From a virus (taxonomy: Duplodnaviria > Caudoviricetes): 26,046 nucleotides of DNA. Shown here one piece after another: positions 1 to 13,388 of this stretch. The position numbers and the translations under genes are program-made. The DNA lies in IMG/VR virus record IMGVR_UViG_3300024518_001114, positions 1 to 26,046 of that record; one strand, written 5' to 3'. The notes under the pieces were generated by a model, which searched no databases, had not been told where the DNA came from, and saw only the letters and a program-made list of their open reading frames with translations. Within the stretch, counting starts at the first letter, position 1; every line of letters begins with the position of its first letter.

Positions 1-203
1 GAATCTACCCTTCCTTGCTGTAATTGTTTTACTTTTTCTATTCCGGGAAGAAAACGGTCGGTGGGCTGTTGAGGTGATTGCTGAGATGGTTGTTCGCCTA
101 TCTGAGAAAAGATATCATTTAACTCTTGCTCTGTTGGTAGACTATCCCCAGTTAATTTTACAGTCTTCCCAGTATTCGGGTCTGTTATTCTAAACGTAGC
201 CAT
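1..203 (-). CDS. N-terminus of a probable large internal-virion/ejection protein (runs off the window edge)
   Basis: Not in ORF track. ATG at 203 overlaps the upstream stop (TAATG); frame open to the edge: MATFRITDPNTGKTVKLTGDSLPTEQELNDIF..., an N-terminal pattern I recognise from large podophage virion proteins; follows two ejection-like genes. Confidence 0.65.
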   Translation of the reverse strand, partial: MATFRITDPNTGKTVKLTGDSLPTEQELNDIFSQIGEQPSQQSPQQPTDRFLPGIEKVKQLQQGRVD

Positions 204-1816
204 TATTCGACCTCCACCGTAAATCTTCCAATCTTCTTCGGATGTTTAAAAGGTATATCTTGGAATCTAATTGTTTCTCCGGGTATTCGTTGCTTCTCTC
301 TCGTTGGTTCTGATATTTGATTCAAGTGAGCAGTAAGAGGGCCGTTAACTTCACCTATTATTGCATCTATTTGTGCCTGCTCTTCAGGACTAAGCTGAAC
401 TCTATCGATAACTTGAGATACCTTAGAAATCCATCTCGATAATTCAGGAGAAGGCACATCTTCCGTGGAAATAACTTTTCCTTTTCTATTTTTTATTTCT
501 CTTGTAAAAACTAAATCGTCTACGTCCATCTTGCTAAACTCTTTATCAAAAGATAATCTATTATTCTCTGCCGCTCTTGCGAATCGGAAGAACGTTCTCA
601 TTGTTTCCGCTACCTGCTCTCCTGCCGCTTCCGGTGCTGTATTAGAATCTGGAATAGTCTTGCCTAACGCTTGTAAAATAGAAGCTACCATTCTAACAGA
701 ACCTTCCCCTTTTTCTGTTTGTTGAGATAACATAGGCATCATTTTAAGTAAGAACTCGCTTCTTTTCCCTTCTAATGTTCCTGTTCGTTTAAACTTACTA
801 CCGAACTTTATTGTTTCCGATGTCCCGCCTAATGCTGGAATACCTTTAGGAATATCTCCTACTTTAGTAGCAAACTGTCCAATCTTTTGTTGAGCAAATC
901 CACCTGCGCCACCTTCTTTAACGGCGTCAACATAAACTTGCATAAAGTCTCTACCAACACCGGATACTAACTCTAAATTAGATATCGCCGCTCTTGCACC
1001 TGATTCTATTTTAATAGACCTTTCCGCTCGTTTTGTTTGTTGAGTTTCAAATCCTTTCTCTCTAATAGCTTGAACTTTCTGTTCTGGTGTCTTTTCTTTA
1101 TCTTTATCAAATCTGGGATTCGCAAATAATCTACCACGAAACTCAATAAACGGGGGCTCTTCTTGTTGTCCTGGCTGTACTCGTCGTGATTGTTGCTCCC
1201 CTTGCTGAGCAAATGGACTTTGTCCCTGTGATACTCTTTGCTTAGCATGAACTACAGCTTTATCAACTATCTCTTTAGTAGGTTGTCCACCGCCTAAAAG
1301 ATGGTTCTTCTCTTGTTCTGTTAATGTAGGAACTAATGAAGGTATCTGTACTTCTTTGCCATCAATATCTACTCCAATAGAAAGCTCTGTAGATACTCTT
1401 CCATCTGGTCTTTGTAATGTTCCAAAGAATCCTGGTCCTTTTTGTGTTCCATCATTCCTCGCTCCAAATCCTTGTTGTGAAACACGATTACCTTGTATAT
1501 CTCCAAAACCACCACCCACTAAAGATTGAACTAGTCCTTGCCCAGCCAAAGGATTGAGCGGATTTAACCCCCCCTGTCTTGATGTTGGTTGTAACGCCCT
1601 TTGTTGTCCTAACTGCGATTGAACTTGTCCAGATTGTTGCCGCCCAGAAGCGATAAATCCCCGTTCCTCTGCCTCTGCTCTAAATGATTCTAATTCGTCT
1701 TTTGCTTTCTGTTTCGCTAACGTCGCCTCAAACGTTGCTAACTCAAAAGCGTGTCTCTGCTTTAATATATTCTGAGCGAAATTGCCAAAATCTATTTTTA
1801 CACCTTCACGTGCCAT
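203..1816 (-). CDS. Putative internal virion (ejection) protein, Gln/Gly-rich N-half with an embedded compact domain
   Basis: 537 aa, AGGAG RBS, low-complexity helical composition, position downstream of tail genes. Confidence 0.6.
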   Translation of the reverse strand: MAREGVKIDFGNFAQNILKQRHAFELATFEATLAKQKAKDELESFRAEAEERGFIASGRQQSGQVQSQLGQQRALQPTSRQGGLNPLNPLAGQGLVQSLVGGGFGDIQGNRVSQQGFGARNDGTQKGPGFFGTLQRPDGRVSTELSIGVDIDGKEVQIPSLVPTLTEQEKNHLLGGGQPTKEIVDKAVVHAKQRVSQGQSPFAQQGEQQSRRVQPGQQEEPPFIEFRGRLFANPRFDKDKEKTPEQKVQAIREKGFETQQTKRAERSIKIESGARAAISNLELVSGVGRDFMQVYVDAVKEGGAGGFAQQKIGQFATKVGDIPKGIPALGGTSETIKFGSKFKRTGTLEGKRSEFLLKMMPMLSQQTEKGEGSVRMVASILQALGKTIPDSNTAPEAAGEQVAETMRTFFRFARAAENNRLSFDKEFSKMDVDDLVFTREIKNRKGKVISTEDVPSPELSRWISKVSQVIDRVQLSPEEQAQIDAIIGEVNGPLTAHLNQISEPTREKQRIPGETIRFQDIPFKHPKKIGRFTVEVE

Positions 1817-1829
1817 AGTTTGTCTCCTA

Positions 1830-2906
1830 TTAATTTCTTAAATCGGCGAACACCTTGCTTAGACTTGAACTACTTGTTCCCCCAATAGGTTGAGCAGTCG
1901 TTGCGCCACCCCCAACCCCTTGATTTATACCTAATAATTGTCTTAATAATTCATTTTGTTGATTCTGTTGACTACCCGGAAATAAACTAGGTTGTAACGC
2001 TTGACCTAATTGAAGCGAATCACCTAAAGAAATAGGGGAGTTAGTTCCACCCAATAATGCGCCAAGATTACCACCCAATCCGGCTCCTATTGAAGCACCT
2101 CCTAGCCCGCCACCGAGAAAGAATCCTGCACCTCCACCCAATAACGAACCAAACGAACTAATAGCCTGACCTTCGGCTGCTCTTCGTCTTTCATCCTCTT
2201 GTAAATCCAATGCACGTTCTTGAGAAAGCAACCCTACTCTAGATTGCTCTTCTATTAATCTATCCTGAGCTGATAATTGAGCGGTTTGGAAATCTTTTAA
2301 CGCTTGCTCTAAATCTGCATCAAATTGTGTGCCTTTTTGTAAAAAGTCTTGACGTTGTTCGATTCCAGCTAATGGATTTATAATCTGTGATATCGGGTCA
2401 ATTCCTAATAACCCTTGTAATGTCAACTCTCCACGTCTTTGATTCTGATTAGAAAGAAACTGCCCTATGTTTCCTATCGTCGGCCCTATCGCTTCAGCGA
2501 ATAACTCAGGAAATGCCGACTCTATCCCACCTAAAGAAGCTCGATGTCCAGCACTTCTTTCCGCTCTTCTTAACATATTACCAAACGTAGAGTCTGCAAC
2601 TCCTTGCTCAAAATTGCTAGGTTGGAATCCTTCAAAGAATTGACTAGCTGTAGCAGGGTCTTGAAGAAAACCAAGCCCCGTTTCTCTTGAAGTTAATCCT
2701 AACGGAGCAATCTCTTGTCCTCTGCCTACTCCAAAATCAAATAACTCCTGGCCAGTTGCAAAATCAGGAACATTTGGCCCGACAAAAGGCTCTCTATCAG
2801 GTAAAGATATCGGAGCAATAGGGTCTCCTTTACTGTCTTTAGGTCTATCAATTTCAGATAAGCCCAGGCTTAATACGCCCGCTGCAATTCTTGAAAATAA
2901 TCCCAT
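1830..2906 (-). CDS. Putative DNA ejection/pilot protein with glycine-zipper hydrophobic segment
   Basis: 358 aa, AAGGAG RBS; GSLLGGGAGFFLGGGLGGASIGAGLGGNLGALLGG segment typical of membrane-inserting ejection proteins; synteny. Confidence 0.6.
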   Translation of the reverse strand: MGLFSRIAAGVLSLGLSEIDRPKDSKGDPIAPISLPDREPFVGPNVPDFATGQELFDFGVGRGQEIAPLGLTSRETGLGFLQDPATASQFFEGFQPSNFEQGVADSTFGNMLRRAERSAGHRASLGGIESAFPELFAEAIGPTIGNIGQFLSNQNQRRGELTLQGLLGIDPISQIINPLAGIEQRQDFLQKGTQFDADLEQALKDFQTAQLSAQDRLIEEQSRVGLLSQERALDLQEDERRRAAEGQAISSFGSLLGGGAGFFLGGGLGGASIGAGLGGNLGALLGGTNSPISLGDSLQLGQALQPSLFPGSQQNQQNELLRQLLGINQGVGGGATTAQPIGGTSSSSLSKVFADLRN

Positions 2907-2926: not shown

Positions 2927-4387
2927 CTATTGTCTATGTCCTAGCGATGTTCTAAAAAGAATCTCCGCTGGTGTCATTCTTTTATATAATATTCTTATTC
3001 CGTCTATATCGCCATTCCACCAATCTGCACTAGAGTTCTGGTTTGTCCCAATATTAAATCCAGATATCGCACTCACATTACCATTACCTGCATCATCTCC
3101 ATCCCCAACATCTACACCATTAACATAAACAGTTGAAGCAGCAGAACTATCCCAAACCACAACAATGTAAGCCCATTGTCCTGTCCCGTTGCTAGATAAA
3201 CCATGTGCTTCACTAAAAGTCTCATCGCCTGAAGCAGTTTTAATTTGTCCAGTTATAACGGTATCTGTCATAGCAACCCTTATAACATTATTAGTTATAT
3301 CAGATATAATAGCTTGTGTTCCTGTAGTTGCTTTATTAACCCACGCCTCAACAGTAAGCTCTGACGTTATACTATCAAAGTCGGCGTCATCAGCTATTAC
3401 AACCTTCTCCTCTGACCCGTCGTAGTCATAACATTCTGCACTTACTTTCCCTAAAACTAAATCTGTGCTTCCCAAATTTGTAGGTGTAGCAGCCTTTTGT
3501 GTACGAGACCTATCTAAGGTTCGGTCTGAATACGATAACAAGACATGGGTATCTTCTTCCCAATAAGAACCAGCACCACCCCATTCAGGAGCCGTAGCTG
3601 CATTATTCATTCTTAATACTTGCCCACCTGCCCCCTTAGCTAACCTAGTAAGAACATTAGAAGAACGATAATAAACATCTCCGTCAGCATCAGAACCTAT
3701 TGACATTGTTGGAGCACCATCTATTGTTACTGCACCGATAGTCCCTGAGTCTATATCTACGCTATCCATATCAACGCTACTAAAGTTTATCGTATTAGTC
3801 GTATCCGAAAAGGTTAACGTATTCGCAGTATGCGTTAATGTTATATCACTACCATCCCAGTTAATAATACCTCCAGAACCGAAATGTAAATCGTTAAGTC
3901 CGAGAGCAGTCGTACCTATATCCAACAACTCTGTTTTTAATGGAATACTAGCAGAGATAGAGCCTAAGATTTTGATATCGTCTCCAGTAGCACTCCCTAA
4001 CGTGACGTTACCTTGAAAATCTGCCGTACCTGTAAACGTATTATTGCCAGAGAACGTTTGAGTATTGGCGAGCATAGCTACCGCCCTGAAACTACTGCCA
4101 TCATCAAAATATAACGTATCATCTGACGTTAAGAATACAGTTCTTCCTTCATTCCCTGCCGCTGGTAAAGAACCTAATATCTCGTGAAATCTAAAACCAT
4201 TCGTAGTATCTGCGTTTGTATTGTTAAGACCACCATTTATCTGGTTTGTATTAAGATTCCATCTTTGATTTAAATTAGACGCTGTTAGCGTATCTCCTGC
4301 TCCGTATTGTGGCATATCTACAACGTCAGCATATACTGGTGTAACTAATAATATAAAGAATAGAAATATGTTTAGTTTTTTAAACAT
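2927..4387 (-). CDS. Tail fibre/spike-like protein with C-terminal LamG/concanavalin-like domain and N-terminal signal peptide
   Basis: 486 aa; fibre-like repeats (ANTQTFSGNNTFTG; GDVYYRSSNVLTRLAKGAGGQVL); LamG motifs LTVEAWV, WAYIVVVWD, VYVNG, WNGDIDGIRI; N-term MFKKLNIFLFFILLVTPVYA/D. Confidence 0.75.
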   Translation of the reverse strand: MFKKLNIFLFFILLVTPVYADVVDMPQYGAGDTLTASNLNQRWNLNTNQINGGLNNTNADTTNGFRFHEILGSLPAAGNEGRTVFLTSDDTLYFDDGSSFRAVAMLANTQTFSGNNTFTGTADFQGNVTLGSATGDDIKILGSISASIPLKTELLDIGTTALGLNDLHFGSGGIINWDGSDITLTHTANTLTFSDTTNTINFSSVDMDSVDIDSGTIGAVTIDGAPTMSIGSDADGDVYYRSSNVLTRLAKGAGGQVLRMNNAATAPEWGGAGSYWEEDTHVLLSYSDRTLDRSRTQKAATPTNLGSTDLVLGKVSAECYDYDGSEEKVVIADDADFDSITSELTVEAWVNKATTGTQAIISDITNNVIRVAMTDTVITGQIKTASGDETFSEAHGLSSNGTGQWAYIVVVWDSSAASTVYVNGVDVGDGDDAGNGNVSAISGFNIGTNQNSSADWWNGDIDGIRILYKRMTPAEILFRTSLGHRQ

Positions 4388-5997
4388 TACTCACGTCTCC
4401 AGCGTTTGGGGTCACTAAATATTGTAGCTCTTTGTAATATAACACTCTGTGATGAAGCTGTATTCGTTACCATCATTTTCATCTTTTTAAACTCTCCATA
4501 GTTCTGTAACTGAAAGGTCTTTCTCGCTACTCCGCTATTAGATAACTGCGTTGGGAGTGTAACAGGTAATGTTACCGATTGTCCCGCAAGACTAACTGTT
4601 CCAGCCGTTTTCCATCCAGTATTATCTAAGTTTATATATACAGTAGCGTTATAGTCTCCTGTCGGGTCAAACTCTACTTCAATATCGTCTATAACCTTAA
4701 ATATCTCCGGCTTCTCGAAATCTATTGACCTTGATATCCAAGCGAACTCTATTCCTTGCTGAGGGTCTTGTCCTGATGTAGTAGTTTGAGGTCCTTCTTG
4801 AAAGTCTCCTGTCGTACCCGTAAAGACTTGTAGCACCCTTCCATCATTAGCATCTGTATAATAAAGTTTATTATTAAACTCTATCCACGCTGAAGGGAAC
4901 CAACCTTTAATTATATACCAAGCTTCTGTAAGGAAATCGAATACTAAAACTGTATTATTAACTGTAGACGTTCCTGTTGGGATTGCGATTATATACTTAT
5001 TATCAAACAACACAGCACAAGCTTTTGACATCTGTGTTTTATTTAAATTAAACCCGTTCTCATTCGTTCCTTCAAAGATATCCTGAATAGGCTTTGATAC
5101 CATGTCTACTAATATCTTATCAAACTCTGAACGTATTAAACTTCTAATCGCTACGGGCTCACTCGACATGAACCATTGGTCGTTACCTAAACTCACCACA
5201 GAACGCGGTGCTGGTGTCCCTATAACCGTGCTGATAGGCTGTACAGTCCACCCACTTAACACAGCCCCTTCTATATCTAATACAAATATACTCCGTTCTT
5301 TATATACAATTAACTCATTTAAGCGATAAGGCATTAACCTTATAATAGCTTGCCCATCTCCTGTATTAATTTTAATAATATCAGTAGAAGTAAACTTTGT
5401 CGGATTCAAGTTATTAGAGAAATATATCCAATCGGTCTCTGTCGTAGCCCCACCTAAGAATAGATAATTCCTTAACCACGCCCCTGTAGTTGCTGTTGGT
5501 GGTGAACTAGGATATATTGAAGATTGAAAAAACTTACTGCCATTCCACCACCCTGTATTATCCGAACCATTTAATACGAATATATTGTCATTCGCTTGAA
5601 CAAACTCTGTATCTTTATTTATAGTTAAAGGAGATGCGTCATTAGCAGAACGCCAAGTAGTATCGTTAGATAAAGAAGCTATCACTCTTATCCCTGACGC
5701 CGCCATTATATACGAAGTTGTCTTATCTGGGTCGAATCTACCTAACCCTCGAAATGGTGTGCTTCCTACGTCTACATTAAATAACGCTTGTCCTTTACGC
5801 TTTGAAATCTTTCCTAATCTATTTACTACAACGTTAACAGCCGAAGCCGCTTGATTCTCTGGTAATAAATCAGCCAAATCAAAACTGTTCATTCCTTTTG
5901 AGAAATCACGTATTCTTATCTGTTCAAGACCCTGCTGTGCAAACAACGAGGATGCTACTAAAAGAACTATAAATATTGAGGTTACAAATTTCTTCAT
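4387..5997 (-). CDS. Tail tubular protein B/nozzle (P22 gp10/T7 gp12-like beta-propeller) with N-terminal signal peptide
   Basis: 536 aa beta-rich; DFSKGMN...NVVVNRLGKISKRKG start of mature region, LIVYKERSIF, IGTPAPRSVV, VLVFDFLTEAW; follows adaptor gene with ATGA overlap; N-term MKKFVTSIFIVLLVASSLFA/Q. Confidence 0.7.
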   Translation of the reverse strand: MKKFVTSIFIVLLVASSLFAQQGLEQIRIRDFSKGMNSFDLADLLPENQAASAVNVVVNRLGKISKRKGQALFNVDVGSTPFRGLGRFDPDKTTSYIMAASGIRVIASLSNDTTWRSANDASPLTINKDTEFVQANDNIFVLNGSDNTGWWNGSKFFQSSIYPSSPPTATTGAWLRNYLFLGGATTETDWIYFSNNLNPTKFTSTDIIKINTGDGQAIIRLMPYRLNELIVYKERSIFVLDIEGAVLSGWTVQPISTVIGTPAPRSVVSLGNDQWFMSSEPVAIRSLIRSEFDKILVDMVSKPIQDIFEGTNENGFNLNKTQMSKACAVLFDNKYIIAIPTGTSTVNNTVLVFDFLTEAWYIIKGWFPSAWIEFNNKLYYTDANDGRVLQVFTGTTGDFQEGPQTTTSGQDPQQGIEFAWISRSIDFEKPEIFKVIDDIEVEFDPTGDYNATVYINLDNTGWKTAGTVSLAGQSVTLPVTLPTQLSNSGVARKTFQLQNYGEFKKMKMMVTNTASSQSVILQRATIFSDPKRWRRE

Positions 5998-6938
5998 GCC
6001 CTATGACCTTGTATTAATGATGATGTCATTTTATGCTGGAACGTCGGTCCTAACTTGGTTGTCTGATTTAACATTAACTGGCTTAACGCCGCTTGTGCTT
6101 TTTGTATCATTAAAGAAGCTCTGTTAATATCTTCTTTTTCTTGTACCATGGCTGTCGCCGCTGTATCAAAAATTAAATAATCGTCTGCGTCTATAAATGG
6201 ATAATCTTCGTCATCTACTAATCTCCTGAACTTCTTCTTATAAATAACTCGCATACTATCAGCACTTCCAGGAATTAAACCCATATCAAATGCTTTATGT
6301 CTCGATACTCTCTCAATATCAGATAACGTAGTCAATGCTGTTAAAGATGAGTTTCGTAATGTAACATAACCTGTAGTATCTGCTGATTTACTCACGTTTA
6401 GTATTTTATAAAAGGTAGTCGTCCCCGAAACATCTGTCGTCCCATTTAAAGTTAGTTCTTCAAACCCTATTATAGTTAATGCTGAATCTAAATACCCTTC
6501 AATCCTCACTGTTTGCGTTGTATCGGCTGTACTCGAACTATCCACTACTATCGTATCACCACTCGTTGATATCTGCACCTTGACGCCGACAACCTCTGTA
6601 AAGTAAGCGCTACCAGCGTCATCTTCAGTAGCATCTGCGATGTTGGCTATATTAGCGTCAAAATACTCTTGATATGTCTTAATTGCAATAGGTTTATCAT
6701 TTGTAATATCGTAAAATCTTATCGGCTTCTCGAAGTCGCTAGGCATATAATATCTTTTAGTTCCGTCTACTGTTGTGAAATTATGAACGTTTTGTAGCTC
6801 TATGAAGTGGTCGTAACTATTATATAAAGTCTGCAAGGAAAGATTAACCCATACTTTTATATTATTAGCGTAAGCCGTATCCTCCGAACGTTGAACTAAC
6901 TTACCGATGGTTGATACTATCTCTCCGAAATTATACAT
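5994..6938 (-). CDS. Head-tail adaptor/tail tubular protein A-like
   Basis: 314 aa; helical N-term then TVDGTKRYYMPSDF and C-terminal DDEDYPFI...YLIF pattern; AGGAG RBS; immediately upstream of nozzle gene; no signal peptide. Confidence 0.65.
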   Translation of the reverse strand: MYNFGEIVSTIGKLVQRSEDTAYANNIKVWVNLSLQTLYNSYDHFIELQNVHNFTTVDGTKRYYMPSDFEKPIRFYDITNDKPIAIKTYQEYFDANIANIADATEDDAGSAYFTEVVGVKVQISTSGDTIVVDSSSTADTTQTVRIEGYLDSALTIIGFEELTLNGTTDVSGTTTFYKILNVSKSADTTGYVTLRNSSLTALTTLSDIERVSRHKAFDMGLIPGSADSMRVIYKKKFRRLVDDEDYPFIDADDYLIFDTAATAMVQEKEDINRASLMIQKAQAALSQLMLNQTTKLGPTFQHKMTSSLIQGHRA

Positions 6939-6946
6939 AATTGCTC

Positions 6947-7162
6947 CTAAAGTTTTCTTTTAGTAGGAAAAGGTAAAAAACTATTTATCTTTAAAACCGT
7001 AAAGCTTCTCGTTCTTTCAACTACAGTATATCCAATTATAGCTCTTATCTTCTGTCCAGGTTTAACGTCTCCAACGGTAGGCGCAACTTTCTGAGAAATA
7101 GAGAAGTCCGCTGGCATATGGAACTGTACTGTCTGGATTTCTCTTTTAATAGATTTTGTCAT
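6947..7162 (-). CDS. Hypothetical protein (small beta-rich, basic)
   Basis: 71 aa, ATGA overlap with upstream gene. Confidence 0.6.
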   Translation of the reverse strand: MTKSIKREIQTVQFHMPADFSISQKVAPTVGDVKPGQKIRAIIGYTVVERTRSFTVLKINSFLPFPTKRKL

Positions 7163-7395
7163 ACCGTTCTTTTCTTGTTTATTACTAAGATATCAGCACT
7201 TTTAATCTCTAACGCATAAATCATTATATCGTCTGCGTTCTCATCAGGCGTTAAAGAAACGCCTATAACTTCTACCATAGCATCTAACTGTCCTTTCTCT
7301 CCGACTTCCATAGCTTGAGCAAAAGGAAACCTATTGTCTAATACCACCGTAGGCTTGGGTCTTTCCAAGCCACTTGACATTCTGCTTTCAAACAT
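7159..7395 (-). CDS. Hypothetical protein (small beta-rich, acidic; possible minor virion protein)
   Basis: 78 aa, TAATG overlap with upstream gene. Confidence 0.6.
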   Translation of the reverse strand: MFESRMSSGLERPKPTVVLDNRFPFAQAMEVGEKGQLDAMVEVIGVSLTPDENADDIMIYALEIKSADILVINKKRTV

Positions 7396-7775
7396 TATGA
7401 GCCGTCACATAATCCATCTGCATCGTTAGAACAAGATAAAGTTCCATTTAATGCGGAACATTCTGTCCATCCAGCATCATCTGTATCTCTTATCATTATA
7501 CAACCACCGCTAGAACCATCTAATGCTAATTGTCCCCACCCTGTTCCTATATCAGTATGAATAAACGTGGCTGGACTAGCGACACCTATCCCCACCTTTA
7601 ATGCACCAGAATTAGTGGTGATAGCAACCGAACCATCCGTACTATTTGAAATCGTTTCACTATTCTCAAGTGTGAGGTCTGTTTTAAATGTACTTGTCTG
7701 ACCAGGAGCGAATCCACCAGCCCACACGTTTCCGCACATAAAAAGAAACGCTATTAAAAGAATATACTTTTTCAT
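7395..7775 (-). CDS. Secreted-type small protein, four Cys in mature part
   Basis: 126 aa; AAGGAGG RBS; MKKYILLIAFLFMCGNVWA/G signal peptide; Thr/Ser/Gly-rich. Confidence 0.75.
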   Translation of the reverse strand: MKKYILLIAFLFMCGNVWAGGFAPGQTSTFKTDLTLENSETISNSTDGSVAITTNSGALKVGIGVASPATFIHTDIGTGWGQLALDGSSGGCIMIRDTDDAGWTECSALNGTLSCSNDADGLCDGS

Positions 7776-7784
7776 CTTGCCTCC

Positions 7785-8162
7785 TTAATATGTAATAACA
7801 ACATTTACAGGACTCGCTGTTCCCGTTTGTGTCTTAAAAGCTATCGAGTTTGTCTTAAAATCGGATAAACTTATAGCCGTATTTGCGTCTAAAAAGAACT
7901 GTGACGGCTTTGTGGAATCCGTAGAAGTACACGAACCACCAATAGACTCGCCTTTTATACTTAAACAAATAGCAGTTGTTGAACCATTATGTACCGTGAC
8001 ATCTCTAGATTCAAACTCTTCTGGTAATGTTATAGTAGTCTGTGCTGTAGTAACATTATACCATTGAGCAAATGTATTACTTAACGCCCCTCTCTTACTC
8101 TGTGCATACGCAGATGTCCCTATCATTAAGACCATCAACATAGCTACGATTAGTTTTTTCAC
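7785..8162 (-). CDS. Secreted-type small beta-sandwich-like protein (possible virion decoration)
   Basis: 125 aa; GTG start with AAGGAGG RBS; MKKLIVAMLMVLMIGTSAYA/Q signal peptide; two Cys. Confidence 0.75.
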   Translation of the reverse strand: MKKLIVAMLMVLMIGTSAYAQSKRGALSNTFAQWYNVTTAQTTITLPEEFESRDVTVHNGSTTAICLSIKGESIGGSCTSTDSTKPSQFFLDANTAISLSDFKTNSIAFKTQTGTASPVNVVITY

Positions 8163-8183: not shown

Positions 8184-10649
8184 TTAAACGCTTCTTAAAC
8201 TTCTATCTTCGTCTAAACTGCTTAACGGTTGTCCTTCTTTTAAAACTTTATTCTTCATAGCTGGTGTAATACGAAAGCCTTTTTGGTTTAGTTTAGGAGC
8301 ATTTTGAATAGCTTTTTCTTTTGTACTATAAATAGTTGCAATACCATCTGTGTCTATTACTCTCCAAACTCTTTTTCCTTTTTCTGGTCCTCCCTCAATC
8401 TTTGTTTCTTGAATCTCTGCGCCTAAATTTATCTCCTCGACCTTCGCATCCTTATCTAACGTCTTAATATACTTATCTGCTACCCTTGGTAGACTAACGT
8501 CATAGGTTTGTTTTAATGCTTCGCCACCGACTTTGAGGTCTTTTTCAAACAAAGTTCCACTAATCCTATCATCCCCCGTTATCTTAGAAGCAGTCTCTTT
8601 GCCAATAACATTAGATAGATTCTTTCCAGTTATATCTGCTGGATTCATCCCACTAGCCCGCAAAGTATTTACAATTTTTCCATCACTATCAATAGAAAGC
8701 TTTAACATAGGTTCAATATCAGCTTTTTCCCTAAAAATGTTTAAAATCTTGTTTCTCGTTGTTGATTGAGTAACCCACTCCATCCTGTCTACTTGCTTAC
8801 TCAAATCAAACCTATCGGCTTGTTGCTCTCCGCTTGTCCACGCTACGACATCTTTCCCGTCATCTATCGCTTTCTTTACCATTTGCTTCACCATAAACTC
8901 TGTATTGTTATTCGTAGCAAACTTAGGTAAAGACTTTAACTGCTCGTCTGTTACGTCATCTACATTAGAGTTTATCTTCTGCATCTCTTCAACGAATAAA
9001 ACCTTATCTCCTTCGCTCGAAGTTCTATCGTTTACTCTTAACCAAGAAAATACATTAGGTTCGTCAAAGGCGTGGGATTTGAATTGTTGTTGATTTCTGA
9101 AATGTTCTATCTGCTCTCTAGTGAGACCACCAACTCCTTCTTTTTCTAATAAATCTAATTGAGCTTTAAATATCTTTTTATGAATCTCTCCTTTATCTTT
9201 AAATCTTTCCATTAATTCCTTTAATCTAATTTTTTCATCCTCCAATATTTGTTCTTCCGATATTTCTTCTTTAACTGGCACCTTAAACTTCAACTCCTGA
9301 TAGTTCTCCCCTCCTGGGAGTTGGTATTGTTGCCATTTAGTAGGTTTTCCAGTAAAACCTCTTGCTCTTAATTGTTCTGCTGTTCCTGCCTGGGTTTCAA
9401 TAATATCATCGAGTAATTGTTTTCCTTGTTCTCCAAGAAGTTCATCTTCTTCCTGTTCAGAAAGTTCAAGATTAATTGCTTTCGTAACTATATTATCAAT
9501 ATCTTGTCTACCAGTTCTATTGGTAACTATTGTATGTAATTTACTTATCTTTGGTGTTGCTTCTACTAACTTTGGGTCGTTACCAAGTATTGATACCTCA
9601 AACGTGTTCTTATTCTCTTTCACGAAATCCAGTAACTCTTGCTTCGTGAACTTACCTTTACTCGCCAAGAAACTATCTAACTTACCCTCTTCTATATCAG
9701 CTTTCTTCCCGAACTTTACTATCTGTGCTTTCGCTTGCTGACTCGTTAGCGTATTCTGTTTTAAGCCCTTAATAGCTTTCTCGGTCTTTGTGAAGAATGG
9801 TTCTTTCGCTATCTCCCCACCCTCTTGGGGTTGGGCTAAGTCTTTCTTTCGTCTAGCCTTCATTCTTCGGTTATGAATCTTATCAACTTCTCCTAAAAAA
9901 ACCTTCTTCTTATCACTCAAATTAACAAATTCTATCTGTTCTTCTCGTGAATTTAGTCCTTGGATTCCTAAGCTGTTGCCTCTTCTAACAATCTTATCTT
10001 CTGCTGGAAACTCTTTTTCCCATAACTCACTCGGAGGTGTAAAACTATCTGGGTTTATATCTTTATTTACATTCTTAATTGCCTCATCTACTGTCTTTGG
10101 TGTTATCTCCCCACCCTCACTAAAAACAACACCACTATCCTGCTGTGGTATCGGGGTCTCTAGCCTAACTTCCCCCTGTGGTGTCACTATCGGTCCCTGT
10201 AACTCTGGTAACGCCTGTGGTAACGGAGTCTCTAACCTAACCTCACCCTGCGGTACTGCCCTCGGTCCTTGTAACTCTGGTAATGGTGCTTCTTGTGGTG
10301 TTCCCCCTAACGGTGGTAACTGCGGCGCCCTCATCGCCCCTACTTGTCCGAAAGGATTTAATATATTAAAGTTAATAGGACTCATCATACCTTGTGCAAA
10401 AGGTATCTGAGATTGTATCGCTTGTTGCCTTCTTCCTTCTAACAACCTAGAAAGTAACGCTATCTTATTAGCCGAAGCTATCTTTAAAAGCGTTCCTATC
10501 GCATTACCACCACCTGACGATAACGCTTGCCCTATCCCGCCCTGCTGATTATCGAGCTGACTTAATATCTGCCCTAACCCGCTACGAGAGAGTAACCCAC
10601 CTATATCCGTCTTAGGTTTTTCAAGTAATGATGTATCAACTCTAGACAA
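8184..10649 (-). CDS. Large phage protein, low-complexity N-terminus plus conserved-looking C-terminal domain; function unknown
   Basis: 821 aa; TTG start with AAGGAG RBS; motifs YQLPGGENYQEL, SHAFDEPNV..LRVNDR, KVLFVEEMQ, VAWTSGEQQADRF resemble large virion-associated/polyvalent phage proteins. Confidence 0.65.
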   Translation of the reverse strand: MSRVDTSLLEKPKTDIGGLLSRSGLGQILSQLDNQQGGIGQALSSGGGNAIGTLLKIASANKIALLSRLLEGRRQQAIQSQIPFAQGMMSPINFNILNPFGQVGAMRAPQLPPLGGTPQEAPLPELQGPRAVPQGEVRLETPLPQALPELQGPIVTPQGEVRLETPIPQQDSGVVFSEGGEITPKTVDEAIKNVNKDINPDSFTPPSELWEKEFPAEDKIVRRGNSLGIQGLNSREEQIEFVNLSDKKKVFLGEVDKIHNRRMKARRKKDLAQPQEGGEIAKEPFFTKTEKAIKGLKQNTLTSQQAKAQIVKFGKKADIEEGKLDSFLASKGKFTKQELLDFVKENKNTFEVSILGNDPKLVEATPKISKLHTIVTNRTGRQDIDNIVTKAINLELSEQEEDELLGEQGKQLLDDIIETQAGTAEQLRARGFTGKPTKWQQYQLPGGENYQELKFKVPVKEEISEEQILEDEKIRLKELMERFKDKGEIHKKIFKAQLDLLEKEGVGGLTREQIEHFRNQQQFKSHAFDEPNVFSWLRVNDRTSSEGDKVLFVEEMQKINSNVDDVTDEQLKSLPKFATNNNTEFMVKQMVKKAIDDGKDVVAWTSGEQQADRFDLSKQVDRMEWVTQSTTRNKILNIFREKADIEPMLKLSIDSDGKIVNTLRASGMNPADITGKNLSNVIGKETASKITGDDRISGTLFEKDLKVGGEALKQTYDVSLPRVADKYIKTLDKDAKVEEINLGAEIQETKIEGGPEKGKRVWRVIDTDGIATIYSTKEKAIQNAPKLNQKGFRITPAMKNKVLKEGQPLSSLDEDRSLRSV
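10143..10286 (-). repeat. Two-copy 72-bp in-frame tandem repeat
   Basis: Units 10143-10214 and 10215-10286 encode LPELQGP(RAV/IVT)PQGEVRLETP(L/I)PQ. Confidence 0.9.
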
Positions 10650-10659
10650 AACTTCTCCT

Positions 10660-10866
10660 TTATCTATTCAATCTGTCTCTCTCTAACTCTGCTCGTTGCT
10701 CGTCTGTTATATAATCAAACGATTCTTTGGTTACATTCAATCCTCGTTGTCTTAATATCTTACCTGAACGAGAACCTTCCCACGTCCCAGTGATGTCATC
10801 CCTGATTAATTTTCCTTTGTGCCACGGTGGTAATCCTCTACTTCTAATTTTGCTTCCTCTACCCAT
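10660..10866 (-). CDS. Small basic hypothetical virion-module protein
   Basis: 68 aa; GGAGG RBS; overlaps end of the ligase-like gene by 8 nt. Confidence 0.65.
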   Translation of the reverse strand: MGRGSKIRSRGLPPWHKGKLIRDDITGTWEGSRSGKILRQRGLNVTKESFDYITDEQRAELERDRLNR

Positions 10867-12034
10867 TTATCTTCCTCCACTCCCCGTAAAATAAACCTAA
10901 TGATATAATTAACAACATCCCCGAAACCGCTGTATGTATCGTGAAAACTCCTAACGCACTTACCATCTGTGCTACGATACAAGAAAAATATATTATCAGC
11001 TCTTTTGACTTATCAAATATTATGAACTTATAAAACAAATCTATAATAATAAGCAGTATTAACAACCAACCTATTATACCTAAATCAAAATATGCTTCTG
11101 CGTAATCATTATGTGCGTGTGCGTAAACATGAGTGTTCTGCCTACTCTGATATAAGAACTCGTATTGCGACATCGGTGAGAACCTTTTAAAGTTTCCCAA
11201 CCCGTACCCTAACATCGGATTACACTTAATTGATTTCTTATACTTAACAAAATCTAATACAATCTCGCCATCATTAACGTCCCTAATCGTATTCTTAACT
11301 AAATCTATTCTTTCTTTTACTGCGACATAAGATAAGTTCTCGAACTTACTAAAGAAGATTAACGAACAAACAGCCATAATTAAAACGATAACACCTAGTA
11401 GACTACGCCTTAAGCGTTTATTTATCTTACATGGCATACTATACAAAAGATATCCGTTAGCTATTAAGAACGCTATCCACGTTGATGTCGTTGTTGAACA
11501 CCATAATCCGAAAATAACAAAGGGTATTAACCAAGGACATACCCCCATAACCACAGGGCTTACTACCGCAAAGAACACGCCTATCTGGTTATGGCTTCCT
11601 ACGAACCCTACTGTGTCGTCTAAGGTCATGTCTTTCGTATAACTAAATATCGGGTCTAAGTTAAAGTATTGTAAGATAACCCAGAAACATTGTATCCCTG
11701 CCGCTACTACAATCGCCCAAAGTATTACCTTCCTCTGCTTCTTAGTGAACTTACTTATAGCGTAAATACTTAGAAACGAAAACATCACCTGAACTAACAT
11801 TACTATCGACGTAGGATACTGCTTCGCTACGAAAACCATGTTATACACACAATAAATACCTAACAACGTATATAAGAAATGAAAATTCCAAAGAACAAGA
11901 AATACTCCTACACATGAAAATGAAAATAACGATATCCAATGGATATACCAAACATCCGCTCCCCTCATCGGAATCGCTCCCAACAAAGGGATTGCTACTA
12001 TTCCTGTTACTACTAATAGAAAAATGCTTTTCAT
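10859..12034 (-). CDS. O-antigen ligase/O-oligosaccharyltransferase family (Wzy_C-type, WaaL/PglL-like) integral membrane protein
   Basis: 391 aa with about 10-12 hydrophobic segments; large loop with PMLGYGLGNF and HAHNDYAEAYFDLGIIG signature; GFVGSHNQIG earlier motif. Confidence 0.85.
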   Translation of the reverse strand: MKSIFLLVVTGIVAIPLLGAIPMRGADVWYIHWISLFSFSCVGVFLVLWNFHFLYTLLGIYCVYNMVFVAKQYPTSIVMLVQVMFSFLSIYAISKFTKKQRKVILWAIVVAAGIQCFWVILQYFNLDPIFSYTKDMTLDDTVGFVGSHNQIGVFFAVVSPVVMGVCPWLIPFVIFGLWCSTTTSTWIAFLIANGYLLYSMPCKINKRLRRSLLGVIVLIMAVCSLIFFSKFENLSYVAVKERIDLVKNTIRDVNDGEIVLDFVKYKKSIKCNPMLGYGLGNFKRFSPMSQYEFLYQSRQNTHVYAHAHNDYAEAYFDLGIIGWLLILLIIIDLFYKFIIFDKSKELIIYFSCIVAQMVSALGVFTIHTAVSGMLLIISLGLFYGEWRKING

Positions 12035-12051: not shown

Positions 12052-12079
12052 AAAAGAGGGTGGCTTTTACACCACCCCC
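12052..12079 (-). terminator. Intrinsic terminator-like hairpin after the capsid genes
   Basis: Minus strand GGGGGTGGT-GTAAAA-GCCACCCTC-TTTT; short U tract suggests partial read-through. Confidence 0.65.
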
Positions 12080-12092
12080 GATGATACTTGTG

Positions 12093-12458
12093 TCAACTTT
12101 GGCCGCCTACTACAGTACAAGCTGCTTCCATATTAGTAGCTCCCCAGTCACCCGTAGGATAACTAGAATAAGCACTAATTGTTGTGTGTGATGCTAAACA
12201 AAGGTCTCCAGATTCATCAATCCACAAAATATAATTCGTGGTTGTATCTGTTTCTACTCCTCCTGTCGGACCTTGACCTACTCCTCGCATCATAATGAAC
12301 CCAGGATTACCAGTCGTATTCAAACCAGTAAGACCTAGATTCGATGTATTCGTACGTAAAGTCTCTGTCGGGAATACTGGCTCCCTTGCGACCTGAGCAT
12401 AACAGAGAGTCGCCACAAGTAATACTGCTGAACATACAACAGCGATTCTCTTGTTCAT
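12093..12458 (-). CDS. Secreted-type small protein directly downstream of major capsid gene
   Basis: Start reassigned to ATG 12458 (GAGGAG RBS), 121 aa; MNKRIAVVCSAVLLVATLCYA/Q signal peptide; two Cys in mature part. Confidence 0.75.
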   Translation of the reverse strand: MNKRIAVVCSAVLLVATLCYAQVAREPVFPTETLRTNTSNLGLTGLNTTGNPGFIMMRGVGQGPTGGVETDTTTNYILWIDESGDLCLASHTTISAYSSYPTGDWGATNMEAACTVVGGQS

Positions 12459-12473: not shown

Positions 12474-13388
12474 TTATGCACCTTGTGACCCATAAGTTCC
12501 CATCCAATGAGAATATCCTGTAGAGAATCTCATGCGAGATAGATGTTTTAAATTAGTGGTATCAAAATCGTTACCACGTTTTAAAGCACCTAGTCTAACT
12601 CTCCAGAAGAATTTTAACTTATGGTTTTCTTTCTCTGACAATAATACCCATGCGTCTGTATCTGTTAGATAGTGACCTACGAAATACTGTAAGTCTTTCT
12701 TTCTAAATGCATTGACTTCGTTGTTGGCGACGTATGGTTTATATTCTGACCCTAAAAGCTCTTCTGCTACGTTCCATAAATCAACTGGAACTAAAAGCAT
12801 AACCGCTTTTGTAGGTCTCTTTAATCCTTTTTCATCAACATACTTCTCAATCGCTGTTAAACCAGCAGTTAAAGAAGTTACTGACAAGTCAGCTTGTGTT
12901 GAAGGTGTATTGGATTGTGTGCTTCCATCAAGATTAGGATGTGCCGTGTTAAACAATGCAACTCCGTCAAACCCTGTTACTGTACCATCTAAACCTGTGT
13001 TGATAACGTTAGCTGCTTCTGTCTCTACAGTTTCAATAGCACTTCTTGATAAAGCTTGAGGTAGCTTAGCGAACGTTTCTGGCGTTCTTAGGTTATCCTC
13101 AACCGCTTCCTCAGTTAACTCGTAACCAAGCGCGTATGTCTTGTGAACATAATTCTTTGAAATACCTGGAAGGATAGCATCGTATGACGCTGCAACTCCT
13201 TCACCTTTCTCAGGCATAGTCACAAAACCCGATTCGTAAGAATCTTTCTCTGACTGTTTATCAGAGGTTTCTACATTCATAAACTTAGTGTACTCTTCTC
13301 CCCAACTTGTTAAACCATCTTGAAACATTTCATTCAAGTTAGCGTCAAGAGCATCAACTATTTGTGTTCTAGTTGTAACATTAGCCAT
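12474..13388 (-). CDS. Major capsid protein (Mu gpT-like HK97 fold)
   Basis: 304 aa; HKTYALGYELTEEAVEDN, GFDGVALFNTAHP, LLVPVDL, YLTDTDAW, DFDTTNLK motifs; AAGGAG RBS. Confidence 0.85.
   Translation of the reverse strand: MANVTTRTQIVDALDANLNEMFQDGLTSWGEEYTKFMNVETSDKQSEKDSYESGFVTMPEKGEGVAASYDAILPGISKNYVHKTYALGYELTEEAVEDNLRTPETFAKLPQALSRSAIETVETEAANVINTGLDGTVTGFDGVALFNTAHPNLDGSTQSNTPSTQADLSVTSLTAGLTAIEKYVDEKGLKRPTKAVMLLVPVDLWNVAEELLGSEYKPYVANNEVNAFRKKDLQYFVGHYLTDTDAWVLLSEKENHKLKFFWRVRLGALKRGNDFDTTNLKHLSRMRFSTGYSHWMGTYGSQGA

Follow-up and report, generated by a model that had tools for sequence, protein, structure and literature searches.

The particles of tailed phages are held to be completed in the cytoplasm, where the podophage tail nozzles of solved structure are also assembled. 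The host Sec pathway does serve some phage proteins, such as filamentous phage coat proteins and Sec-exported endolysins, but neither of these groups includes a core component of the tail of such a phage. Exported core tail proteins were not found in the literature searched, a search that had subscription journals and supplements outside its coverage. The literature on phage glycosylation and on Wzy_C proteins concerns cytoplasmic glycosyltransferases and conversion genes. Here we describe a 26,046-nucleotide stretch of an uncultured virus of the Caudoviricetes (IMG/VR record IMGVR_UViG_3300024518_001114, positions 1 to 26,046; hereafter the window, with an estimated completeness of 57% for the virus record), in which the tail nozzle and the tail fibre carry predicted signal peptides. 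The late operon is that of a podophage, lies on the minus strand, and encodes a terminase, a GroES-like protein, an SU10-type portal, the capsid, an adaptor, the nozzle, the fibre and ejection-like proteins. Three genes are central to the argument (lengths in amino acids, aa).

4387..5997, minus strand: 536-aa tail nozzle whose residues 1-20 (window 5938-5997) are predicted to be a cleavable Sec leader; assigned from a structural model and from the leader in homologues
2927..4387, minus strand: tail fibre-like protein, 486 aa, with a leader at residues 1-20 (window 4328-4387), assigned from PF13385 and phrog_8510
5994..6938, minus strand: head-tail adaptor, 314 aa, leaderless, assigned from PF24175 SU10_adaptor (E 6.9e-11)

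By its predicted fold, the 536-aa protein is a podophage tail nozzle, as a first-pass annotation made from the letters alone had suspected. The AlphaFold2 model (pLDDT 90) contains the nozzle fold, a propeller with flanking beta domains. A fold search (Foldseek, VIA) returned podophage nozzles as top matches, aligned from model residue 23-25, and the top 19 VIA rows are all phage tail chains. The best match is the nozzle of Pseudomonas phage Pa223 (9NWI; Z 30.3, root-mean-square deviation 2.6, 451 residues aligned); P22 gp10 (8EAP) gave Z 26, and further matches include Vibrio phage VP1 (8ZKK), SU10 (7Z4B), crAss001 and T7 gp12. A structure search could have overturned the nozzle identity, and with Z 30 to Pa223 it did not. 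The placement came from fold alone, as a sequence-only search for solved relatives returned none, and the PHROG label of amidase (phrog_5107) was rejected by the fold. Residues 1-2 of the solved nozzle chains align with model residues 23-25. Since these chains begin where the leader ends, the leader is an addition ahead of a complete nozzle. The gene directly follows that of the adaptor and has one match in each of five complete relatives (G001 to G005, 42.6-46.0 kb), so that no leaderless spare copy is recognisable.

The nozzle leader has 20 residues, with a basic start, a hydrophobic core and small residues at -3 and -1, and is predicted to be cleaved after residue 20. Ten residues separate it from the DFSKGMN stretch, which starts at residue 31. 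The fibre leader has the same length and build, and both leaders therefore stand as the first-pass annotation had placed them. At both junctions, adaptor to nozzle and nozzle to fibre, the stop codon of the first gene overlaps the ATG of the next. The adaptor, also described earlier as translationally coupled and leaderless, indeed has no hydrophobic start, and none of 33 adaptors bears a leader. Leaders were called with our own hydrophobicity-and-charge rule, rather than SignalP, and the same rule was used for all gene classes.

Among the best 120 of 217 nozzle homologues, which are 48-100% identical to the query, 119 have a hydrophobic core at the N-terminus; the remaining one (P0007) was called from a start near the end of a leader. 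Across the 119 aligned rows, the net charge over the first eight residues is at least +1 in 115 nozzles, position -1 is A, S, C or G in 111, and position -3 is A, V, C, S, L or T in 114. A twin-arginine pattern occurs once and a lipobox never, so that the family has the sequence features of a Sec/SPI (signal peptidase I) substrate. The leader shares 30% of its residues with the query, the mature part 58%. A cleavable signal of the Sec type fits because of the charge, the residues at -3 and -1 and the faster drift of the leader. Gln stands at +1 in 103 of the 119 nozzles, compared with 44 of 110 leader-bearing proteins overall; the latter share is too low for us to invoke the Bacteroidetes Q-rule (PMC5837995). 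Initiation downstream of the leader, named by the first-pass annotation as something that would refute its view, was rejected on sequence. The only in-frame ATG among the first 45 codons is codon 36, within the fold, and there is no conserved internal start behind the leader, just 8 of 119 rows having a Met among the 12 residues that precede the fold.

Instead of full export, such a leader might anchor the nozzle at the membrane's cytoplasmic face, or leaky export might leave a cytoplasmic pool that builds normal tails. The GroES-like co-chaperone of the clade, which could speed folding in the cytoplasm, and the lack of sequon or Cys enrichment in the nozzles would suit this explanation. The leaders themselves speak against it: mean charge is +2.05 before the hydrophobic core and -0.19 in the early mature part, which indicates an outward orientation; the -3/-1 pattern is retained despite drift of the leader sequence; and a leader of the same build is found on many unrelated late proteins. 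We consider tethering or leaky export improbable.

Sequence comparison indicates that the nozzle leader is a clade-specific addition, a point that the first-pass annotation had proposed to check against homologues: it is present in 119 of 120 close homologues, whereas 95 of 101 full-length, mostly distant nozzles are leaderless. These 101 representatives (480-570 aa), drawn from the best 150 of 2172, were placed with 15 close homologues in a FastTree phylogeny of 116 rows. Leader-bearing rows occupy four places: a 17-row clade with the query phage, P0137 with P0143, P0138, and P0179. The four named sequences are distant nozzles, 29-32% identical, with apparent leaders and outside the main clade. 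As the tree was built with FastTree and the leader is less distinct in P0137 and P0179, repeated gain of the leader is suggested, and no more than suggested.

The distribution of leaders over the other late genes can be followed with the remaining features of the operon.

12474..13388, minus strand: major capsid protein, leaderless (phrog_371, PF25209; leader in 0/28)
12093..12458, minus strand: 121-aa protein with leader, directly 3' of the capsid gene (leader in 27/27 loci)
12056..12079, minus strand: G+C-rich hairpin with T-run, 3' of the small exported gene (hairpin conserved in 27/27 loci)
10859..12034, minus strand: Wzy_C polytopic membrane protein, 391 aa, resembling O-antigen ligases and O-oligosaccharyltransferases (PF04932)
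7785..8162, minus strand: conserved 125-aa protein with leader (leader in 15/16; alignment)
7395..7775, minus strand: leader-bearing protein of 126 aa whose mature part has four Cys (no homologue among the loci compared)
6947..7395, minus strand: two short genes (71 and 78 aa), both leaderless, the upstream neighbours of the adaptor gene (profile matches confined to clade loci)
203..2906, minus strand: two leaderless Gln/Gly-rich proteins after the fibre (no family; position and make-up)

In the clade loci, counted with near-identical records included and with some copies outside the clade list uncounted, a leader is present on the nozzle (35/38), the fibre (34/35), the post-capsid small protein (27/27) and the second small protein (15/16), and absent from terminase (0/7), portal (0/11), scaffold-like protein (0/24), capsid (0/28) and adaptor (0/33). 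The few misses in the leader-bearing classes look like start-call problems. A near-identical copy of the phage (L101) extends 5 kb beyond the window; this adds at least four further proteins with leaders, one of which has a beta-helix. The division looks like one between proteins that are inside or packaged with the head, which lack a leader, and those added on the outside, which have one. The first-pass annotation had drawn the boundary between adaptor and nozzle. It does run there, since the adaptor is leaderless and the nozzle is not, but it is wider than that, because the small protein that is likely coexpressed with the capsid and several accessory late proteins bear leaders as well.

Leaders on nozzle and fibre, and none on the head proteins or adaptor, suggest that the outer parts are made outside the cytoplasm. 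The reading that we favour, and hold to be probable by a modest measure, is that the particle is built in two compartments, with the outer parts exported and docked after the membrane is breached. The nozzle, the fibre and other outer parts would be exported by Sec and stored outside the inner membrane or in the periplasm. The capsid, portal, adaptor and ejection proteins would form a DNA-filled head in the cytoplasm, in which the portal, perhaps with the adaptor or with two small clade-specific proteins, would hold the DNA until the nozzle arrives. PMC6702177 proposes that the closed T7 portal retains DNA before tail assembly, which makes a waiting, nozzle-less head plausible. Lysis, by breaching the inner membrane, would bring the heads together with the stored parts, and docking would follow by ordinary self-assembly. 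Particles would then be completed only after breach or passage of the membrane, as had been proposed from the letters alone. Export, glycosylation (discussed below) and the timing of assembly are all inferred.

The Pfam scans of relatives covered proteins of at least 75 aa and, in G003-G005, genes other than the known core genes. In G002, G004 and G005 the free wall hydrolases are encoded outside the late operon and have a membrane anchor or a leader. The only wall hydrolase of G003 is part of an ejection-like protein, and none was found in G001. Three wall hydrolases that are unrelated to one another, one per genome, with an anchor or leader and outside the late operon, are encoded in L067 (18862-19398, SLT), L073 (6116-6685, RlpA-like) and L076 (3552-4055, M15). 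The operon ends in small hydrophobic genes of holin size, one of which has a weak match to an Rz-like spanin. These genes count against passage without lysis, in which an adaptor-capped head would dock at the inner membrane and be extruded onto pre-positioned nozzles in a chronic release. Such passage gains something from the late operons of the five complete genomes, in which neither a holin nor a classical cytoplasmic endolysin was recognised, from the anchored or leader-bearing hydrolases outside the operon and their absence from G001, and from the conserved polytopic protein in the operon. The leaderless locus L002 is likewise without a named endolysin in 35.6 kb, however, so that the absence is not specific. 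In the polytopic protein, residues of the catalytic type found in glycan ligases are retained, and no ATPase or channel gene was seen. To our knowledge, moving a head of such size through the wall would be unprecedented. We give non-lytic passage little credence.

Peptidoglycan hydrolases in four of the five complete genomes point to a bacterial host; the match of a G002 protein to a BamE-like lipoprotein stays below cut-off. A search for a host link gave four genome_contigs matches, two of them full-length, and no contig longer than 46.4 kb among clade loci or Wzy_C homologues. One clade locus (L060) is in a bin titled as an archaeon. This raises the prospect of a host without a periplasm, monoderm or archaeal, from which the parts would be secreted to the wall or medium and join the heads after release. 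Phage contigs are often mis-binned, one nozzle homologue (P0011) is labelled Obscuribacterales, and with the hydrolases these points leave such a host very unlikely. Assembly in two compartments would hold with or without a host periplasm.

A reason for the parts to leave the cytoplasm may lie next to the capsid gene. The Wzy_C protein scores 42.3 bits against PF04932 (cut-off 31.7), and R242 and H308 are invariant in 108 rows. Its profile matches the ligase WaaL (7TPG, 1.7e-14) and an oligosaccharyltransferase (9RMK, 3e-11), H308 aligns with the His motif of both, and its model has WaaL 7TPG as best, though weak, fold match (E 4e-3, TM 0.50). All 112 Wzy_C matches are on contigs of at most 46.4 kb where length is given, and tblastn against 50,697 phage records gave no match. 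Among 28 distinct loci spanning capsid to nozzle, Wzy_C with the preceding small exported gene is present in 21/21 leader-bearing loci and 0/7 leaderless ones; capsid, small exported gene, hairpin and Wzy_C (window 12056-12458 and 10859-12034) form a fixed unit in all 21 clade loci. In five leaderless loci that were checked, cytoplasmic GT1/GT2 glycosyltransferases occupy the capsid-nozzle slot. These regions, between capsid and adaptor (L002 3222-7307, L027 3300-7489, L029 2361-9015, L037 3039-9048, L038 2942-8520), encode an enzyme of about 760 aa with GT2-TPR-GT1 or TPR-GT1 make-up, GT2 enzymes and sugar-modifying genes, and are candidate cytoplasmic virion glycosylation clusters.

In the two-compartment proposal, the Wzy_C enzyme would move host lipid-linked glycans onto at least one exported part, and transfer of glycans outside the cytoplasm would explain why the parts need to leave it. 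We put such glycosylation of exported parts at slightly short of an even chance. The 121-aa protein is a candidate acceptor and likely a capsid decoration protein. It has a leader in 66 of 70 database matches, and it has no family and no solved relative, its Atlas matches all being below 0.9. A hairpin of -11 kcal/mol or stronger lies 3' of its gene in 27/27 loci, compared with 3/27 after the capsid gene, 0/31 after Wzy_C, 0/38 after the adaptor and 0/36 after the nozzle. The hairpin at 12056..12079 is likely a terminator or mRNA-end stabiliser. Its conservation after the small gene places that gene in the expression unit of the capsid, likely at the same expression level, as expected of a decoration protein. 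The C-terminal residue is Ser or Thr in 16 of 25 loci and 31 of 70 database matches, and the window protein ends in Ser. A strict rule of a C-terminal Ser/Thr acceptor was rejected, as it failed in the wider family.

The exported proteins could alternatively have ceased to be virion parts and act at the cell surface, in a superinfection block or as decoys, with Wzy_C as an O-antigen polymerase that converts the serotype, like that of Pseudomonas phage D3. According to PMC9658991, the Wzy_C genes carried by D3, phi297 and VarioGold are morons or serve conversion, and G002, with an integrase and a repressor, is temperate-like. The genes of those phages, however, lie opposite the late genes, whereas here Wzy_C is co-oriented with the structural operon, between capsid and nozzle, in 21/21 loci. 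The nozzle is moreover single-copy, full-length, conserved (48-73% identity) and translationally coupled to the adaptor. Surface products are thus a distinctly unlikely account of the exported set. Serotype conversion as the role of Wzy_C alone is easier to entertain, although we still think it unlikely.

Several observations weigh against the two-compartment proposal or its tie to glycosylation. No holin was recognised among 82 proteins scanned, the late-end genes of the five complete genomes, which leaves the breach step without an identified gene. The nozzles contain fewer N-X-S/T sequons than shuffled sequences (571 vs 698) and a smaller share of Cys than their leaderless counterparts (0.55% vs 0.9%). 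A test for an excess of sequons or paired Cys found none, and nothing here points to a need of the nozzles for chemistry in the periplasm. Gln is the last residue of the small protein in 32 of 70 database matches, about as often as Ser or Thr (31/70), and the N-terminal profile of the fibre matches leaderless fibres weakly (iE 0.04). The 21-versus-7 contrast amounts to about one event, because one clade is compared with its relatives, and the leaderless relatives also have a different capsid family. In L093 and L097 a leaderless nozzle occurs together with exported late genes and a Wzy_C-like gene, and L028 and L032 have exported accessory genes with leaderless nozzles. Neither feature therefore requires nozzle export, which weakens the causal tie. 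L093 (4326-10428) and L097 (9362-16535) are unrelated podophages and are possible intermediate states; export may have followed a gradient, with outer accessories first and the nozzle last.

The remaining genes add detail to the operon. The fibre matches phrog_8510 (virion structural protein) and ends in a LamG lectin domain (PF13385, E 1.4e-17); its weak Pfam match to a neurotoxin receptor-binding domain was attributed to the shared lectin fold, and its conserved N-terminal region is likely used for tail docking. The two leaderless genes upstream of the adaptor gene (window 6947-7395) have no family above cut-off; a profile search found them in clade loci and in none of the leaderless ones, and one may speculate that they help to hold the DNA. 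Both families are beta-rich and often tandemly duplicated, with up to four copies. The Gln/Gly-rich pair at 203..2906 are likely internal ejection proteins, judging from position and make-up, and in G003 a third gene of this kind bears a transglycosylase domain. An 821-aa insert at window 8184-10649 has no family, and its one relative among the loci compared (L089, E 7.5e-22) sits elsewhere in the operon. Directly after Wzy_C, most clade loci encode a conserved basic protein of about 60 aa (window 10660-10866), with CxxC in several copies. The capsid genes of L011 (4916-6508) and L020 (5169-6879) are each interrupted by an open reading frame (about 190-225 aa) that may mark a homing element or a self-splicing intron. 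L077 (15838-18869) has a weak PMT-like membrane glycosyltransferase and a B12 radical SAM gene, L065 (13004-13798) a sulfotransferase in the late operon, and L070 (15258-15887) a PglD-like acetyltransferase.

If true, this would be a different assembly route, in which a clade with more than 100 distinct nozzle sequences exports the tail part that seals the DNA. Infectivity would be tied to exit, and particles could be dressed in host-type sugars. Nozzle export could possibly also keep the nozzle away from Avs13, described in PMC13581612 as a STAND sensor of nozzles that acts as a cytoplasmic immune sensor. Such a benefit is called into question by capsid, portal and adaptor, which also have sensors and yet stay inside. 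We offer as a tentative generalisation, one that we would not yet back, a widespread class of tailed phages with a sealed, tail-less cytoplasmic head; its nozzle, fibres and capsid coat would be Sec-exported, glycosylated with host lipid-linked glycans by an oligosaccharyltransferase of the phage and attached only on exit, with nozzle export having arisen several times and hiding the nozzle from sensors such as Avs13.

Compared with known systems, the nozzle shares its fold with those of Pa223, VP1, SU10, P22 gp10 and T7 gp12 over residues 25-534 (Z 21-30), and the locus shares the order of adaptor, nozzle, fibre and ejection-like genes as well as the SU10-type adaptor and portal families. Sequence identity to these nozzles is only 10-17%, and the solved chains have no leader. 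Closer leaderless relatives include MW202524, in which a "phage stabilization protein" is 28% identical to the nozzle. Leaderless environmental relatives share the nozzle and adaptor families, a genome of about 42 kb and glycosylation genes between capsid and adaptor. They differ in having no leader on the nozzle or first fibre, GT1/GT2 enzymes instead of Wzy_C and, in the one tested, another capsid family. The phage-borne polytopic Wzy_C protein has counterparts in D3, phi297 and VarioGold; those genes lie opposite the late genes (PMC9658991), and the gene described here does not. The pairs of pilin and TfpO/TfpM, as presented in PMC9829042, share the Wzy_C domain with a conserved His (H308 was compared through 7TPG and 9RMK, not with TfpM itself) and likewise have a small exported protein encoded directly upstream and an enzyme of comparable length (420-470 aa there, 391 aa here). 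The upstream protein in the window has a Sec leader, no pilin match and a Ser/Thr end in only 31 of 70 database matches.

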